This document shows, piece by piece, positions 6,019-22,747 of a stretch of DNA of 32,000 nucleotides; the stretch's first letter is position 1, and each line of letters begins with the position of its first letter. The stretch covers positions 1,200,001 to 1,232,000 of the forward strand of contig NC_010655.1 in the NCBI RefSeq assembly GCF_000020225.1, in the 5' to 3' direction. Below the pieces are notes generated by a model. The model was not told where the DNA came from. It saw only the letters and a program-made list of their open reading frames with translations, and made no database searches. A program made the position numbers and the translations under genes. Origin of the DNA: Akkermansia muciniphila ATCC BAA-835. Lineage in GTDB: Bacteria > Verrucomicrobiota > Verrucomicrobiia > Verrucomicrobiales > Akkermansiaceae.

Positions 6019-6504
6019 ATGACCGTTCAATTTATTAAAGTCACTAAAAAAGATAGGGTCTGCTATGCTCCGGTGCCGGAGCCGTTGGAAGAGGGGGATA
6101 AGCTGGAAATCATGGAAATGAAGGATGAAGCCCTTTTCCCGCCGGCAGGGAAAAACGCAAGGATTTCCCTATCCAGGAATCCCATGGTATTCGTGAAAAT
6201 GAATGACGGATTCCAGCGCATCCTGATGAAGAATATCCTGTATGTGGAGGCGGGCGGAAGTTATTGCACGCTGCACGTGCACGGCATGCCGGCTATCCTG
6301 GTATCCGCTCCGCTGGCGCGGGTATCCGAGCATCTGGATGGGGAATATTTTATCCGCGTGCACCGTTCCTACCTGGTTAACAAGCTGCATATAGAATCCA
6401 TTGCGGGCAACTTCCTCCAGGTGGGCGTCGTTGCCATTCCCATCAGCAAATTCATGAAGAAAAAAGTGCTGGGCAGTTTGAACATGCTGTCGTTTTCCAA
6501 ATAA
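6019..6504 (+). CDS. Stand-alone LytTR-family DNA-binding protein (no receiver domain)
   Basis: 161 aa. The C-terminal ~95 aa match the LytTR pattern (ILYVEAGGSYCTLHV...FIRVHRSYLVNKLHIESI...IPISKFMKKKV). The N-terminal ~65 aa are not a CheY-like receiver. AT-rich upstream region. Confidence 0.8.
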   Translation: MTVQFIKVTKKDRVCYAPVPEPLEEGDKLEIMEMKDEALFPPAGKNARISLSRNPMVFVKMNDGFQRILMKNILYVEAGGSYCTLHVHGMPAILVSAPLARVSEHLDGEYFIRVHRSYLVNKLHIESIAGNFLQVGVVAIPISKFMKKKVLGSLNMLSFSK

Positions 6505-6663
6505 GTTCCGGCCTGCCGCACGGGCTCCTGCGGCGTTCCGGGAAAGCGAAATGGAACGGCCGGAAAGGCGGGATGGAAGCAGAAACGGAATGGCCGCATC
6601 ATTCACGACGTCGCCGGAAGGCGGCATATCAATGAATCTAAACCAGAAATAGAAATTAAATAT

Positions 6664-7503
6664 ATGGCAATTGACAGATCAGCAGCAGAAGCGGCGACTT
6701 CCTCCCTGCAGTCGCTGCCTTTCGGCAACATCATCGGCGGTCCCCTGGTCGCCTGTGTGGAAGCACAGGCCCAGGCGGCCCGGACTTCCTGGGAATTCAT
6801 CCAGAACGTGGGCCTGTACGCGGATGGGGAAGAGAAGAAGACGGTGAACGTTTCCTTCCAGTTCATCAAGGACGGCCGCATGGCTCAGATTACGGTTCCC
6901 CTTCTGACCATCGTCCCCATTCCCTATATCGCCATTAACTCCATCGACATCAATTTCAAGGCGAATATCAGCGCGTCCGCCGCCAGTACGGAGACGGAAA
7001 ATTCCTCCAGTTCCGTAGACACCAGCGTTTCCGCCTCTGCAAGGTGCTTTTGGGCGCGCGGCAGCATGAATGCCAGCTATTCCAGCAAAAAGGACTCCTC
7101 TGCGACCAGGGATTCCAAATACAGCGTGGAATACACCATGGACGTAGCCGTCCATGCCGGACAGGACAGTATGCCTGCCGGGATGGCCAAGGTGCTGGAG
7201 ATGCTGAACAATAGCATTTCCGTCGTTTCTCCGGAAGGGTTCCTGGACGTGCAGCATGCCATCCAGGACGACGGAACCGTGAAATTGATAACCTCCTACA
7301 AAAACAGGGAGGGGCTGTTTGACCCGGAAGCCATCACCCTGCGGATAGGCGAAGCGACGGAAATATTTGAAAACGGTGCGGGGAATGAAGCCAGGATTGT
7401 GAAAACGGATTCCGGCAAGGAATACACACTTTCCAGGGAAGACGCCAGAAACTGCACGGTGAGCGCTGGAGAACTCAAGAGGAAGGTGGCTGTAGGCGCC
7501 TGA
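6664..7503 (+). CDS. Hypothetical protein, paralog A of a three-member family (DUF2589-like from memory)
   Basis: 279 aa, ATG start. N-terminal helix motif IIGGPLVACVEAQAQAA, then a beta-hairpin motif ITVPLLTIVPIPYIAINSIDINFKANI. A Ser/Thr-rich loop follows, then MDVAVHAGQDSMPAGMAKVLEML. The antisense ORF 6679..7515 is R/G/H-rich, typical of a shadow frame. Confidence 0.75.
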   Translation: MAIDRSAAEAATSSLQSLPFGNIIGGPLVACVEAQAQAARTSWEFIQNVGLYADGEEKKTVNVSFQFIKDGRMAQITVPLLTIVPIPYIAINSIDINFKANISASAASTETENSSSSVDTSVSASARCFWARGSMNASYSSKKDSSATRDSKYSVEYTMDVAVHAGQDSMPAGMAKVLEMLNNSISVVSPEGFLDVQHAIQDDGTVKLITSYKNREGLFDPEAITLRIGEATEIFENGAGNEARIVKTDSGKEYTLSREDARNCTVSAGELKRKVAVGA

Positions 7504-7541
7504 TAACCGAACCATAGCGATTTCTCCTCCATTCCAGAGCC

Positions 7542-8348
7542 ATGTCCCGTCTTAATCTCATCGTGGAATCCCTGCTGAAGGACATTATTGAAGCGCAGCA
7601 TGCGGCAAACTGCCACGCGGCATCACTGGCGCGCCAGTATGGGAAGAGAGGCCGTGCGTGCGGTTTCCCGCTTCCCAGCGCCCAGATAGGCTCCCTGGAA
7701 TTCGATTTGAAATATGCGGTGACGGGAACTTCCGGGGTGGAGGAGAAACAGGTTGCGGACACGGAGCAGTGGAGCCTGTTCCGGCAGGAACTGGAAGAGC
7801 GCGTGCCGGCGTTTGCCATCCGTTCCATTGTGATGGCCGTGGTGCATTCCAGCCTTCCGGACGACGAAGCGAGAAGCGACTTCTCAAGCCTGCTGGCCAG
7901 GGAGGAACAGTGGAAAAAGAATTTCTGCTCCTACCTGGGGAAGAAAATTTCCGCAGCCGTTTCCGCTCATGAGGGCGCGCTCCTGAAGGCGGAACCCGGG
8001 CTGGACAGGGGATTGCTGCTGGAGCTTCTGGCAGGCGTCGCGGAAAGGGAGTTCATGGATAATCCGGAGCTGGAGGACCTGTTCCAGGGAACCCGGGGAG
8101 ACCCCCTCAGGCAGGAATGCCGCGCCAATCTCCGGGAAGGCCTTTCCTCTTTCTTGGCCGCTCTGGCGGAAAAGTACGTCCTCACCAGGCAGGAAAGCAG
8201 TGTGGTGGTGGATGTGGAAGTAGAGGCGGACAAGCTGAAAAAGATGCCGGAGGAAGCCGTGCAGACCCTGCGCCTGAATATATCCCCTGCTTCCATTCCC
8301 TCCGTTCTGGCGGAGCAGAATGATGTTTCCGGGTTGTCCGCGCAATAG
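7542..8348 (+). CDS. Hypothetical protein, paralog B (same N- and C-terminal signature, helical insert)
   Basis: 268 aa, 38 bp after the previous stop. N-terminus LLKDIIEAQHAAN...FPLPSAQIGSLEFDLKYAV. C-terminus VDVEVEADKLKKMPEEAVQTLRL. Both segments are collinear with the paralog A and C motifs. Confidence 0.7.
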   Translation: MSRLNLIVESLLKDIIEAQHAANCHAASLARQYGKRGRACGFPLPSAQIGSLEFDLKYAVTGTSGVEEKQVADTEQWSLFRQELEERVPAFAIRSIVMAVVHSSLPDDEARSDFSSLLAREEQWKKNFCSYLGKKISAAVSAHEGALLKAEPGLDRGLLLELLAGVAEREFMDNPELEDLFQGTRGDPLRQECRANLREGLSSFLAALAEKYVLTRQESSVVVDVEVEADKLKKMPEEAVQTLRLNISPASIPSVLAEQNDVSGLSAQ

Positions 8349-8354
8349 TGATAG

Positions 8355-8951
8355 ATGATGAGTGATTCTACAAATAATAACAAGGTGAACGGGCACATTA
8401 TGAGCCTGCAGCAGCTGATTTCAGCGCCGCTGGTCGCAACGATTGACGCGGATGCGATGTCCACGGAACGCTACATGAAGCATTTCATGTCCCTGGCCTT
8501 TGAGTCCTACAATCCTGTGGACGGTTCCACCGGGGCGTTGAGGTTGATCAGCTTCAATTTTACGGACAGCGACGCTTCCGGCGGCGCGGAAAAGAAGGTC
8601 AGCGTGCCGCTCGTCAGCCTGGTGACGCTGCCGCTGCTGCAAATCAAACAGGCGGATTTTGATTTTGACATCAATATCATTGACGCCGTAGCCGCCGCGC
8701 CGAATGAACATTTTTCCCTGAACAGGGGAGAGGTGGAGTCCCCCGGCGGAAAAGAGCGGGATGAAGGGCTGAATTTTCGGGCTTCCCTGGCTCCGCAGTC
8801 CGGGAGAGGGGCTTCTTCCTCCCTGCAGGCGAACATGAAAATCCATGTCTCCATGCAGCAGGCTGACATGCCTTCCGGCCTGTCCCAATTTCTCCAGCTG
8901 GCTTCCAGGCCGCATTATGAGGATGTCCCTTCCCGGGAAAAGAATGATTAA
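8355..8951 (+). CDS. Hypothetical protein, paralog C (DUF2589-like from memory)
   Basis: 198 aa, 6 bp after the previous stop. Motifs LISAPLVATIDADA, VSVPLVSLVTLPLLQIKQADFDFDINIIDA and MKIHVSMQQADMPSGLSQFLQLA. Confidence 0.75.
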   Translation: MMSDSTNNNKVNGHIMSLQQLISAPLVATIDADAMSTERYMKHFMSLAFESYNPVDGSTGALRLISFNFTDSDASGGAEKKVSVPLVSLVTLPLLQIKQADFDFDINIIDAVAAAPNEHFSLNRGEVESPGGKERDEGLNFRASLAPQSGRGASSSLQANMKIHVSMQQADMPSGLSQFLQLASRPHYEDVPSREKND

Positions 8952-18762: not shown

Positions 18763-20757
18763 ATGGTTCTGTCTGTTCAAAACCTGCGTGTGCAGTATGG
18801 CGCGCGCGTCCTGTTCAATGACCTTTCCTTTACAGTGGAGGATGGGGAAAGAATTGCCCTCGCGGGCCATAACGGCGCGGGGAAATCCACGCTGATGAAG
18901 TGCATCGCCGGTTTGAATGAACCGGATTCCGGCTCCATTATCAAATCCAGGCATTCCCAGGTGGGTTATCTGCCCCAGGAAGGAATTCATATCCGAGGGC
19001 GCAGGCTGATTGATGAAGCCATGTCCGCCTTTGCGGACCTGATGGATCTTCAGGAGCGCATTGATGTCCTGACGCGGGAAATGGCGGGGCTGGATCCCCG
19101 TTCCGCCGCCTACTCTGAAGTTCTCAATGAAATCGGGGAATTGGAACTGGTGCTGCATGCCCATAATTCCGCCCGGCTGCGTCCCCGGACGGAATCCATC
19201 CTGCGCGGCCTGGGATTCAAAGACAGGGATTTTGACCGGGATTGCGGAGAATTTTCCGGCGGCTGGCAAATGCGCATCGCATTAGCCAAACTGCTGCTCC
19301 GGGAGCCTGAAGTGCTGCTTCTGGACGAACCTACCAACCATTTGGACATCCAGTCCCAACGGTGGATGGAACAATATCTGCGCTCCTACCGGGGCGCTAT
19401 CATCCTTATTTCCCATGATGTGGCGCTTCTGGATGCCCTGGTTTCCCGTACGATTGCTTTTTACCACGGCCGGGCGGAGGAGTACGCGGGCAATTTTTCC
19501 TATTTTCTGAAAGAAAGCGTGCTGCGGAAGGAAATTCTGCTGCGCCAGAAAAAGGCTCAGGACCGGGAGATTGCCAAAACGAAGGAATTTATCGACCGTT
19601 TCCGTTATAAAGCCACCAAGGCTTCTCTGGTTCAGTCCCGCATCAAGCAGTTGGAAAAAGTGGAACTGATTGAGGTGGAAGAGGATGATGCCGTCATGAA
19701 CTTTCACTTTCCTGCTCCTCCCGCTGGCGCCCATTCTGTGGTCAGGCTGGAAAAGGTTTCCAAACATTATGGTTCCGTTTCCGTTTTTGAGAATGTGGAT
19801 TTTGAAATCGTCAAGGGGGACCGCATTGCCATTGTAGGAGTAAACGGGGCGGGGAAATCCACATTTTCCCGCCTTATTTCCGGCGGAGAGGCCCCCAGTT
19901 CCGGCAGCGTGACCATGGGACGCCATACGCAGGTAGCTTTTTTCTCCCAGACGCATGCTGATGATCTGGATCCGGATAAAACGATTTTGGAATGCGTGGA
20001 AGCTGCCGCCACGCGGGAATCTGCGCCCATGGTCCGGAATCTGCTTGGCTGTTTCCTGTTCCGGGGGGATGACGTACACAAGCGCGTTGGCGTGCTTTCC
20101 GGAGGCGAGCGCTCCCGCGTGGCGCTGGTGTGCATGCTTTTGCATCCGGCCAATTTCCTGATTCTGGATGAACCGACCAATCATCTGGACATCCAGTCCC
20201 AGCAGGTGCTTCAAAAGGCTCTGTCCGAATATCCGGGTTCCTACTGCATCGTTTCCCACAACCGCAGTTTTTTGGATCCCATCGTGACGAAAGTGCTGGA
20301 ATTTGTACCGGGAGAGAAACCGCGCGTTTACCTGGGCAATGTTTCTGATTATTTGGAAAAGGTGGAGAGGGAGCAGGCCCTGGCTGCCGCAGCCGCCTCA
20401 CCCCCCTCCGGAGCGGCGGAACCGGGCGCCGGATTGGATCGCAGGGCACGCAGGCGCATGGAGGCGGAAATCCGTCAGAAGAAGACGCGCCTGCTGCGTC
20501 CGCTTCAGGAGAAACTGGAGCTGCTGGAAGAAGAAATAGCGCGGCTGGAAACGGAAAAGACGGAAATTACTTCTCAATTGGAGCGTCCGGAAGTGGCGGC
20601 TGATACGGAAGCCGTCATGGAGCTTACCTCCCGTTTTCAGCAGACGGACCGGCAGCTGGAAACCTGTTTTACACAATGGGCTGATCTTTCGGAAAAGATT
20701 GAAGAGACGGAAGCCCGCATTCAAGAAGAGGCGGAAAGAAACGTTTCCGGAAGCTGA
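18763..20757 (+). CDS. ABC-F family ATPase (Uup/YheS-like, no transmembrane domain)
   Basis: 664 aa with two ABC cassettes. First cassette: GHNGAGKST, LSGGWQMR, LLLDEPTNHLD. Second cassette: GVNGAGKST, LSGGERSR, LILDEPTNHLD. C-terminal charged coiled-coil tail. Confidence 0.9.
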   Translation: MVLSVQNLRVQYGARVLFNDLSFTVEDGERIALAGHNGAGKSTLMKCIAGLNEPDSGSIIKSRHSQVGYLPQEGIHIRGRRLIDEAMSAFADLMDLQERIDVLTREMAGLDPRSAAYSEVLNEIGELELVLHAHNSARLRPRTESILRGLGFKDRDFDRDCGEFSGGWQMRIALAKLLLREPEVLLLDEPTNHLDIQSQRWMEQYLRSYRGAIILISHDVALLDALVSRTIAFYHGRAEEYAGNFSYFLKESVLRKEILLRQKKAQDREIAKTKEFIDRFRYKATKASLVQSRIKQLEKVELIEVEEDDAVMNFHFPAPPAGAHSVVRLEKVSKHYGSVSVFENVDFEIVKGDRIAIVGVNGAGKSTFSRLISGGEAPSSGSVTMGRHTQVAFFSQTHADDLDPDKTILECVEAAATRESAPMVRNLLGCFLFRGDDVHKRVGVLSGGERSRVALVCMLLHPANFLILDEPTNHLDIQSQQVLQKALSEYPGSYCIVSHNRSFLDPIVTKVLEFVPGEKPRVYLGNVSDYLEKVEREQALAAAAASPPSGAAEPGAGLDRRARRRMEAEIRQKKTRLLRPLQEKLELLEEEIARLETEKTEITSQLERPEVAADTEAVMELTSRFQQTDRQLETCFTQWADLSEKIEETEARIQEEAERNVSGS

Positions 20758-20844: not shown

Positions 20845-21495
20845 TTATACCCGGCGGCGCAGAAGCAGGGCGGCCATGCCAAGCAGGCTGAGGGAGGCCG
20901 TCGCCGGCTCCGGTACCGTGTCCCCCTGAAGATTCAACTGGGAAAGCCCCAGGAAGGTTCCTCCGGTGTTGGGAGCCTTGGCATTCACGGTGAGGGTAAA
21001 GGTTTCCCCCGCACTAACTGTGACCGGGGTATTGAAGCTGGCTTCCTGGATATCGGCCGTCGGCGTGCCGTCTTTATCAGCCTGGACTCGCTCAAAGCTC
21101 AGGTCAGCCGTGGCGGAGGAATCTCCGGCAGTCAGCGTAACGGTAGCGGTTCCCGCTTTAGTATCCGTATTGCTATGACGCTCCCCGCTTGCATTGACGA
21201 ATTGAAAACCTAGGCTGAGGGAAGAAAGGACGATGTCCTGCGTAGCTGTGAAGGAAAAAGTGACAGTCCAACCGGTTTCATTTCCATTCATTTGGAGGTT
21301 GGGAACAAGAAGATCCGCTGCCAGATTGTTGGAGAGGGCGGTGGAAGGAGTGGTGAGAGTGACGGAAGCATCTTCCAGAAAATCGCTCCCAGTAGTAATG
21401 CTGGTTTGATGAAACTGGGTTTCATACAGAGTGGACGCCGCCTGTACTCCGGAAATACACAATAAAAATGTTGAAATGAAAAGAAGACTCTTCAT
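20845..21495 (-). CDS. PEP-CTERM sorting-domain surface protein
   Basis: 216 aa. Signal peptide MKSLLFISTFLLCISGVQA. T/S-rich beta-type body. C-terminal VPEPATASLSLLGMAALLLRRRV, which is a PEP motif plus a TM helix plus a basic tail. Confidence 0.8.
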   Translation of the reverse strand: MKSLLFISTFLLCISGVQAASTLYETQFHQTSITTGSDFLEDASVTLTTPSTALSNNLAADLLVPNLQMNGNETGWTVTFSFTATQDIVLSSLSLGFQFVNASGERHSNTDTKAGTATVTLTAGDSSATADLSFERVQADKDGTPTADIQEASFNTPVTVSAGETFTLTVNAKAPNTGGTFLGLSQLNLQGDTVPEPATASLSLLGMAALLLRRRV

Positions 21496-21508
21496 AGCTC
21501 CATGTTAG

Positions 21509-21529
21509 CGGATTAGATATCCGGTGACA
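21509..21529. repeat. Left arm of a perfect 21-bp inverted repeat (CGGATTAGATATCCGGTGACA)
   Basis: Its reverse complement is identical to 21668-21688. It lies 14 bp upstream of the PEP-CTERM gene ATG (21495). Confidence 0.9.
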
Positions 21530-21588
21530 GAGGATAGGAAAATGGGAATGGATAAATACACACATTACTAATGATTTATGAAAATAAA

Positions 21589-21616
21589 ATTTTATTGTGT
21601 ATTAAACACTTTCCAA
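21589..21616 (-). promoter_or_regulatory. Candidate sigma70-like promoter inside the IR-flanked segment, pointing toward the PEP-CTERM gene
   Basis: The minus strand reads TTGGAA (21616-21611), N16, TAAAAT (21594-21589). Motif match only; no TSS data. Confidence 0.3.
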
Positions 21617-21667
21617 ATTTTTCCTCTTTTCCCGTGGTGAAACTCGTTTTTCTTCAAAAAATTTTGT

Positions 21668-21688
21668 TGTCACCGGATATCTAATCCG
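21668..21688. repeat. Right arm of a perfect 21-bp inverted repeat (TGTCACCGGATATCTAATCCG)
   Basis: Exact reverse complement of 21509-21529. The arms are separated by 138 bp of AT-rich DNA. Confidence 0.9.
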
Positions 21689-21832
21689 GAGGCAATCTTT
21701 CCTGCGGAGTAATAAATGAATATTTGTCCGCTGCGGAAAATCATCAGCCTGACATGGCCTGGAAGGGTTTCCGCCCATTTCCATGCAAGGGGAAAAATAG
21801 AGGGAACCGGCCCGGGAGAAACCGGCTTTCTT

Positions 21833-22747
21833 TCAGGATAGCCTTTTCTTCCCGCTTTTCCGTGTTTTTTTTCTGTACTCTGAAATCGTGACGCCGCACA
21901 GGGTAAGCAGAATCCCCGCCAGGGATATCCAGGTCAGGCGTTCCCCCAGAATGATGGCTGAGGCCACCACGGTTACGACCGGTATCATGTAAATGTAAAC
22001 GCTGGATTTGACGGCTCCCAGAATTTCCACCACGCGGTTCCAGGTCAGAAAGCACAGTGCGGAGGCGAACAGACCCAGATACAGCAGATTGATGGCATTG
22101 ACGGGTTTTGCCATCAGGCGCCAGTCCATGTTTGCAGGAAGGACCCACAGGGCGGGAATCATCAGTGCAATGCCATAGAAGAAAATGCGGCGCGTGCAGA
22201 TGATCATGTTGGATGTGTTGACGCCGATTTTTTTCATCAGGATGGAATACGCCGCCCAGACGAAGGCCGCGCCCAGTGCCAGGATATCCCCCGCCGGATT
22301 CAGTTCCAGAACGAAGGCTCCGTTTGCCATGATAAGGAAGATACCTGTAAAGGCAGCGGAAAAACCCAGGAAGAAACGGCGTGAAAAGCCTTCCCCCTTC
22401 AGCAGGAAATGGGCCAGAAGGGCTGTGAAGAAAGGAACCACGGCTACGATAATGCCCACATTGGAGGCGAAGGTATAGGTCAGGGCGATGTTTTCCAGCA
22501 GGAAGTACAGGGTAACCCCGGTCAATCCCGCTCCGGCGAACAGAAGCTCCTTTTTCCAGCCGGAGAATGGAAGAACCCGCGGTTTCAGGCACCAGAGGAA
22601 GGCATATCCGATCACAAAGCGGGTAAAGAGAACCGTGACGGGGGTGAAATCCCGCAAGAGCACCTTGGTGGAGACGAAAGTGGTTCCCCAGATGATAATG
22701 GTCATGAGGGCGGCGGCATGGCCCAGGGTGCGCTGTCGGGAACTCAT
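21833..22747 (-). CDS. DMT-superfamily transporter (EamA/RhaT-like, 10-TM)
   Basis: 304 aa, very hydrophobic, with a two-fold EamA-like repeat architecture. N-terminus LGHAAALMTIIIWGTTFVSTKVLL. The start overlaps the upstream cupin stop by 1 nt (TAATG). Confidence 0.85.
   Translation of the reverse strand: MSSRQRTLGHAAALMTIIIWGTTFVSTKVLLRDFTPVTVLFTRFVIGYAFLWCLKPRVLPFSGWKKELLFAGAGLTGVTLYFLLENIALTYTFASNVGIIVAVVPFFTALLAHFLLKGEGFSRRFFLGFSAAFTGIFLIMANGAFVLELNPAGDILALGAAFVWAAYSILMKKIGVNTSNMIICTRRIFFYGIALMIPALWVLPANMDWRLMAKPVNAINLLYLGLFASALCFLTWNRVVEILGAVKSSVYIYMIPVVTVVASAIILGERLTWISLAGILLTLCGVTISEYRKKTRKSGKKRLS

Follow-up and report, generated by a model that had tools for sequence, protein, structure and literature searches.

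An invertible DNA segment upstream of a PEP-CTERM protein gene in Akkermansia muciniphila, and its possible action as a split-promoter switch

Introduction

The surface of Akkermansia muciniphila, a gut bacterium and candidate next-generation probiotic, is the part of the cell that the host and phages encounter. In strain ATCC BAA-835 a gene coding for a PEP-CTERM protein is preceded by a short AT-rich segment flanked by inverted repeats, and an earlier note, made from the sequence without database searches, proposed that this is an invertible, phase-variable promoter present in its ON orientation. The locus raises two questions: does the segment invert, and if it does, which of the two orientations would express the gene? 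We have addressed these using a 32,000-nucleotide stretch of the genome that includes the locus (the window, in whose coordinates all positions are given unless otherwise stated), related loci in public assemblies and metagenomes, and published inventories of invertons.

Organization of the locus

The gene (20845–21495, transcribed leftwards on the minus strand) codes for a 216-residue protein with a signal-peptide-like N-terminus and the C-terminus VPEPATASLSLLGMAALLLRRRV, and it has the C-terminal PEP motif, hydrophobic helix and basic tail of PEP-CTERM proteins. The C-terminal end scores above the curated cut-offs of both PF07589 (21.4 bits, cut-off 20.7) and TIGR02595 (18.9 bits, cut-off 16). 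Upstream of the gene are two arms of 21 nt each, one gene-proximal (21509–21529, CGGATTAGATATCCGGTGACA) and one gene-distal (21668–21688, TGTCACCGGATATCTAATCCG), which are 100% complementary as an inverted repeat and separated by 138 nt, giving an element of 180 bp in total. The geometry described in the earlier note, a perfect 21-bp repeat bracketing 138 bp of very AT-rich DNA close to the start codon of the PEP-CTERM gene, is borne out by the sequence throughout; the interior has 29–31% G+C (29% over 21530–21667) compared with 55% for the window, and the proximal arm is separated from the start codon by 13 bases (their coordinates differ by 14). The arm 21-mer is present at only these two sites in the window even when 3 mismatches are allowed (0.00 expected from shuffled sequences), and no other perfect inverted repeat in the 32 kb reaches 15 nt with a spacing of up to 1 kb. 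Each arm includes a dyad-symmetric 15-nt core of the form CGGAT-N5-ATCCG, located at 21509–21523 in the proximal arm (CGGAT-TAGAT-ATCCG) and at 21674–21688 in the distal arm.

Smaller repeats are also present. The 14-bp AT palindrome (AATAAAATTTTATT, 21583–21596) and the flanking 8-bp arms (AATACACA, 21555–21562, and TGTGTATT, 21596–21603) that the earlier note singled out are where it placed them, but they are not kept in the orthologous elements described below and no role for them is supported. A further perfect 14-bp inverted repeat connects codons of the signal peptide (21454–21467, AATACACAATAAAA) with the interior (21590–21603, TTTTATTGTGTATT). Nested inversion through this repeat was considered and rejected, as none of 22 loci shows such recombination and the repeat is absent from the orthologs; it is probably a chance feature of AT-rich DNA.

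A DMT/EamA gene with an EamA domain (21833–22747, minus strand) lies upstream of the switch, and a terminator-like hairpin beyond its 3′ end (21805–21827, minus strand, found by a consensus scan only) would shield the switch from DMT/EamA read-through. Further away in the window, and unrelated to the switch, is a gene for a LytTR DNA-binding protein, after which come two DUF2589 genes separated by an unassigned ORF (6019–8951). Variants of the PEP-CTERM protein itself are also recorded (P0003, which represents 34 member sequences, and P0004; ~255 residues), in which, owing to a frameshift just past VPEPA, an unrelated tail of ~60 residues stands in place of the membrane anchor. Either a sequencing error that recurs or a true anchor-less form could account for them; these C-terminal frameshift variants bear no relation to the switch, and were set aside as candidates for a switch-related change.

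The segment inverts between its arms

The PEP-CTERM protein is recorded in 8444 blocks of the assembly collection. Among seven loci fetched around it, six have the orientation of the window and one (L006, GCA_025543035.1) is flipped, differing from a window flipped in silico by 1 mismatch in 401 positions, with the interior exactly reverse-complemented between the arms. A scan of metagenome contigs with an orientation-neutral pattern, composed of the gene flank and the arm, returned 15 contigs, of which 10 are complete and window-like, 1 is window-like and ends inside the segment, and 4 are flipped. Over these 22 independent public loci there are therefore 17 window-like and 5 flipped copies, with the breakpoints in the arms every time, and the exact reverse complement of the interior is present in L006, L012, L017, L021 and L022, as well as in the hCom2 reference. 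As had been proposed, the 180-bp segment is a true inverton, a switch that works by site-specific DNA inversion. Both orientations are present beside the PEP-CTERM gene in these 22 assemblies, which include isolates and metagenomes, as well as in the published sequence reads described below.

A few sequences depart from this picture. Some metagenome contigs (L010 and L015) end 70 nt inside the inverton or 70 nt past it, and L154 (555-upstream) ceases to match its ortholog L153 midway through the interior; these anomalies look like assembly breaks at a site of mixed orientation. A homolog with a foreign N-terminus (P0002) was considered as a second rearrangement and rejected, as it derives from a chimeric metagenome scaffold (L023, 1–480) in which unrelated low-G+C DNA is joined to PEP-CTERM codon 15 at TCCGGAGTACAGG.

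A catalogued inverton with skewed orientation in mice

Both this exact element and the class to which it belongs are already known. Akkermansia invertons with arms of the form CGGATT..AATCCG were described by Jiang et al. 2019, as quoted in passages of PMC13343947, and the class was found again in A. muciniphila ATCC BAA-835 as 'inverton group 138', members of which are enriched beside PEP-CTERM genes, with related invertons situated upstream of PEP-CTERM and autotransporter-like genes (PMC11892184, Microbiome 2025). The element itself is listed in the supplement of the preprint of that study (10.1101/2024.06.01.596983) as A-mu-ATCC-BAA-835__0:1219554-1219575-1219713-1219734, with the inverted repeat CGGATTAGATATCCGGTGACA, a group assignment of 115 rather than 138, and the PEP-CTERM gene marked as 'regulatable'; adding 1198045 to window coordinates gives the gene and inverton coordinates of the catalogue, and the window is therefore from this strain or from an isogenic genome. 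The same catalogue lists a CDS-intersecting 'inverton' within an ABC-F gene (window 20007–20124; group 78) with 12-bp arms (CGCCACGCGGGA and TCCCGCGTGGCG), which the window carries in the catalogue orientation.

The ends of the arms fit the class pattern CGGATT..AATCCG, with the pair spaced within the ~150–200 bp of the class, and the element belongs to this described Akkermansia class. It shares with the other members the organism, the arm ends, an A/T tract with a TTGAC motif, a size in the 165–195 bp class, and the kind of neighboring gene (PEP-CTERM or autotransporter). It differs in its group number, in having longer arms (21 nt) that contain most of a −35 sequence, and in the arm core (CGGATTAGATATCCG), which departs from the published motif 138-1 (CGGATTSYHAATCCG) at 2–3 positions, a match loose enough to be common by chance.

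The 180-nt catalogue sequence is the exact reverse complement of window positions 21509–21688, and the catalogue reference therefore holds the other state, such that F denotes the orientation flipped relative to the window and R denotes the window state. The earlier note had suggested mapping population reads to both orientations, and the published paired-end counts supply this: there are 858 F and 839 R reads from isolate culture, a ratio of ~50:50, and 147 F and 12923 R reads from pooled mouse stool (10.1101/2024.06.01.596983). F is thus 1.1% of the mouse-stool reads and the window state ~99%, corresponding to an odds ratio of 90 between culture and mouse, and F remains steady at 0.6–2% across mouse generations (10.1101/2024.06.01.596983).

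The recombinase

Screening of the window and of 27 related loci by local phmmer with XerD and Hin queries brought up neither an integrase nor a resolvase domain. Both queries were validated against Pfam (Phage_integrase, 9e-60; Resolvase, 6e-48), and the window was additionally covered by Pfam searches of the ORFs at 4–10 kb and, for the remainder, by precomputed Pfam assignments of the genes in the syntenic loci L024 and L027. All three approaches agree with the view of the earlier note that the window contains no recombinase gene. In strain MucT, an annotation-based inventory contains XerC, a second Xer-like enzyme, four 'invertase group 107' paralogs and one ungrouped tyrosine recombinase, which amounts to seven recombinases of the tyrosine type and, by annotation, no serine recombinase (10.1101/2024.06.01.596983); the five non-Xer genes have the catalogue coordinates 707730, 1640417, 2004245, 2027896 and 2434900. 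None of the seven genes is within 5 kb of the inverton, and with no recombinase nearby the invertase therefore acts in trans, as the earlier note had supposed. Going by the annotation, it is most likely a tyrosine recombinase; no invertase for A. muciniphila invertons is named in the literature that we searched.

Related invertons

An inverton is present at the same place beside the orthologous gene in four other Akkermansia lineages (L024, L153, L152 and L027), whose proteins are 81, 78, 75 and 72% identical, respectively, to that of the window, and the switch is kept even in L027, which lacks the upstream DMT and cupin genes. The half-sites of the arm core are kept across these lineages, while the core center varies between them (ATCTA, TAACA, TAGCA, TGTGA), with both arms changing together. 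A family-level scan covering one genome per species identified 24 loci in Akkermansia, Akkermansiaceae or Verrucomicrobiales, all of them AT-rich in the interior and bounded by true inverted repeats (≥15 nt), with at least 14 different core centers among them. We envisage that a trans-acting tyrosine recombinase would bind as a dimer to the dyad core CGGAT-N5-ATCCG of each arm, with strand exchange occurring in the central core bases. Centers that differ between invertons and co-vary within any one of them would keep the many invertons of a single genome from recombining with each other.

Most of the loci matched by the scan were from outside Akkermansia (Bacteroidota, Chloroflexota and others), but these are direct repeats of CGGATT-N3-AATCCG hairpins that share only a 6-nt inverted repeat, and match because the pattern is self-complementary; they were left out of the inverton family. 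In these genomes tandem or dispersed direct repeats occur around a hairpin such as GGCGCGGATTTGCAATCCGTGCC (L050 6096–7140, L057, L032, L121, L141, L085, L125, and most of the non-Akkermansia loci of L032–L151), with periods of 45 to ~190 nt, including an 89-nt unit in ~12 copies in L050. Although the hairpin core CGGATT-N3-AATCCG resembles the anticodon arm of tRNA-Cys, such an origin was rejected, with ARAGORN reporting no tRNA and Rfam no family; CRISPR arrays also look unlikely, as it is the whole unit that repeats.

A possible split promoter

The published Akkermansia promoter motif 138-2 (TTTTTTYTYAAAAWWWHWTNTTGAC) consists of an A/T tract and TTGAC, ending in the −35 and including no −10 (preprint Table S7, 10.1101/2024.06.01.596983). 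There is a single match to it in the window (21647–21671, plus strand; 2 mismatches, 0.02 expected), which reads away from the PEP-CTERM gene. The −35-like hexamer TTGTCA at this end (21667–21672, plus strand) finishes 1 nt before the 15-nt arm core, with five of its six bases in the arm and the first T contributed by the interior. At the other end of the element a −10-like hexamer, TAACAT (21502–21507, minus strand), is located in the fixed DNA outside the element, 1 nt from the proximal arm core and 6 nt upstream of the ATG.

This arrangement recurs among the relatives. The sequence TTG[AT]C[ACT] is 1–2 nt from the core at exactly one interior end in 23 of 28 family invertons, with an A/T tract before it, and at both ends in none; five of the 28 are without a strict TTGAC. 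The gene-side flank has C-TAnnnT straight after the core, giving a 17-nt spacer (1 + 15 + 1), and the gene-side hexamers in the five ortholog lineages are TAACAT, TAGTAT, TAGCAT, TAGAGT and TAGCAT. Across the family as a whole, hexamers with A as the second base and T as the sixth are present at 10 of 15 gene-side ends compared with 12 of 41 other ends (p=0.015, or 0.12 with paralogs collapsed), and the evidence for a −10 there is moderate. The closeness of the −35 to the arm (1–2 nt), and of a TAnnnT to the outer side of the gene-side arm, suggests that the arm itself serves as the 17-bp spacer of a promoter that is split between invertible and fixed DNA.

With the segment flipped, the gene strand would read AAAAAATTTTGT-TGTCA-C-CGGATATCTAATCCG-C-TAACAT-GGAGCT-ATG, with AAAATTTTGT joined to TGTCACCGG at one junction and, at the end of the arm, AATCCG joined to CTAACAT. 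Because the arms extend to include GTCA, a flip changes no more than the first base of the −35 (T or C) and the A/T tract upstream of it, which counts against a split promoter at this locus. In four of the five lineages with orthologs, 6–7 nt separate the −10-like hexamer from the ATG, and these bases (GGAGCT, GGCGCGC, GACTCCC, ACTTTTC) are not conserved, suggesting that the transcript is leaderless. A −10 located 6 nt before the ATG would bypass the Shine-Dalgarno-like GGAG of A. muciniphila ATCC BAA-835, which also counts against a split promoter. Transcription start sites mapped in A. muciniphila have −35 and −10 signals, and ~10% of them are leaderless (PMC4782308).

A homolog from another genome with 55% identity to the PEP-CTERM protein (L031 70–233, GCA_965297475.1) is associated with an inverton-like element that has a 126-nt interior and an unrelated arm, a 17–19-nt dyad of the form TA-CAGCATTG-S-CAATGCTG (17 nt without the TA). 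TTGACA abuts one arm on the inside, and TAACAT and TATCGT (both TAnnnT) abut the two arms on the outside, with TAACAT on the gene side. The TTGACA-arm-TAACAT order around an unrelated arm argues that the geometry is conserved independently of the arm sequence, and this element may represent a second specificity of arm and invertase with the same split-promoter design, and is perhaps bidirectional.

From these comparisons we lean, with some reservation, towards interpreting Akkermansiaceae invertons generally as split-promoter switches. The invertible DNA would hold only the upstream half of a sigma-70-type promoter, comprising a UP-like A/T tract and, 1 nt from one arm, a −35 that reads TTGTCA at this locus and TTGAC in the family; the 17-bp spacer would be formed by the arm core, and the −10, TAACAT in this case, would be fixed outside the gene-side arm. 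With a mobile −35 and a fixed −10, inversion would assemble or dismantle the promoter of the PEP-CTERM gene, and the ON transcript may be leaderless here, its ATG being 6 nt past the −10-like hexamer. The same interpretation would include conservation of the design in L031, and core centers variable enough to keep the ~30–40 invertons of one genome apart. We found no description of a split −35/−10 inverton arrangement in the literature searched, from which Jiang et al. 2019 was outside the scope; this geometry and the possible leaderless transcript may be the only new part of this analysis, and represent a modest mechanistic point.

Which orientation is ON?

The −35 end is directed away from the PEP-CTERM gene in the window, which would make this the OFF orientation. 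A calibration comes from the cps1 inverton, whose ON state goes along with encapsulation of the cells and is the prevailing one in mouse faeces, as determined by Percoll fractionation and restriction or qPCR assays (mBio 2026, PMC13343947). The MucT orientation primer used in that study (TAAGGGATTACTATTGACACCG) maps to the TTGACA end of catalogue entry 2523944-2523957-2524115-2524128; the right end of the reference sequence of this inverton is ...TTGACA-C-CGAATTTGAAATCCG, and the cps1 genes are to the right on the plus strand. Its F state accounts for 70% of culture reads and 95–100% of mouse reads (10.1101/2024.06.01.596983). Since the cps1 genes are on the side that TTGACA faces in F, and F is dominant in mice, ON corresponds to the TTGAC end being next to the genes, a calibration that combines data from two studies and takes the orientation listed in Table S5 to be that of the reference (F). 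The motif-based reading leads to the same assignment. The window orientation is most likely OFF, and the switch would then be ~50% ON in culture and ~1% ON in mice.

The two invertons are of the same class and have the same TTGACA-N1-core end, and the cps1 inverton flips in culture, in mice and in humans (PMC13343947). They differ in that the cps1 inverton controls a capsule operon ~420 bp away and is mostly ON in mice, whereas the element described here is 13 nt from a single small surface-protein gene and, by the same criterion, would be ~99% OFF.

The assignment of the window as OFF runs opposite to the earlier note, which took a complete promoter inside the segment, TTGGAA-N16-TAAAAT (21616 to 21589, minus strand), to drive the PEP-CTERM gene with the window ON. 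The site exists and points toward the gene, and the prevalence of the window state (17 of 22 assemblies and ~99% of mouse-stool reads) would fit selection for expression in the gut. However, it matches at 9 of 12 positions, a frequency expected by chance in AT-rich DNA (1 found, 1.4 expected from shuffles), and is probably incidental; it is not conserved in the sister-species invertons of L024 or L027, which do retain the A/T tract with its TTG end and the gene-side TAnnnT. The published class motif is moreover at the opposite end and reads in the other direction, and in the phenotyped cps1 inverton it is the TTGACA end that is next to the genes in the ON state. We consider an internal promoter of this kind to be unlikely.

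Less probable still is that the segment inverts with no effect on the PEP-CTERM gene, either as a neutral site or by acting elsewhere, for example by antisense transcription into the 3′ end of the DMT/EamA gene, which the −35 end does face in the window state. No −10-like hexamer is present in the DMT-side flank (GAGGCAAT), and the switch has been kept beside the orthologous PEP-CTERM gene in five lineages, including L027 with neither the DMT nor the cupin gene; furthermore, the strong shift in orientation between culture and the gut of mice (odds ratio 90) implies that a phenotype is either selected or regulated. The notion that the repeat never recombines and is only an RNA stem or an operator, with the flipped copies being assembly artefacts, is effectively excluded by exact arm-to-arm inversion in five independent assemblies from different projects with breakpoints in the arms, and by thousands of paired-end and spanning reads for both orientations in the published data set; the RNA fold of the region does far surpass that of shuffled sequences (z = −6.7), but a perfect repeat of 21 bp trivially accounts for this, and the switch matches no Rfam family at E≤1.

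Taken as a whole, the locus is probably best explained as an inverton that is flipped by a trans-acting tyrosine recombinase, that carries a split promoter, and that is OFF in the window. Motif geometry and the cps1 calibration suggest a functional invertible promoter, with transcription of the PEP-CTERM gene predicted to depend on orientation.

Comparison with other switches

The fimS switch of Escherichia coli is a short invertible segment with short inverted repeats that controls a surface structure and is inverted by the tyrosine recombinases FimB and FimE. The A. muciniphila element is similar in its short segment and repeats, in its predicted control of a surface structure and in the type of recombinase proposed here. 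In contrast, fimS carries a whole promoter and has adjacent recombinase genes, whereas here the recombinase is unlinked and the promoter is apparently split across an arm. In Bacteroides fragilis, the global serine invertase Mpi acts on many promoters, and the Akkermansia invertons are likewise numerous in a genome, with a common arm motif, served in trans and associated with surface molecules. They differ in arm motif, and the Bacteroides promoters are wholly within the invertible DNA; moreover, Mpi is a serine recombinase, whereas the MucT annotation includes none and no Resolvase-like ORF was found in 28 loci. A parallel for promoter assembly is found in insertion sequences, where an outward −35 at the end of the element and a resident −10 form a hybrid promoter. 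A mobile −35 and a fixed −10 would assemble a promoter in the same manner here, although by a reversible programmed inversion rather than by transposition.

Implications

The change from ~50:50 in culture to ~99% in one orientation in the mouse gut indicates that, in vivo, strong selection or regulation acts on the PEP-CTERM protein in an orientation-dependent manner. Whether the gut favors the protein or selects against it follows from which orientation is ON; if the split-promoter reading is true, it is counter-selected. If the arm is a promoter spacer, ON/OFF calls that seek a whole internal promoter can err for this phylum, and the feature to search for would instead be a pair of short (~15 nt) arms with a flanking −10.
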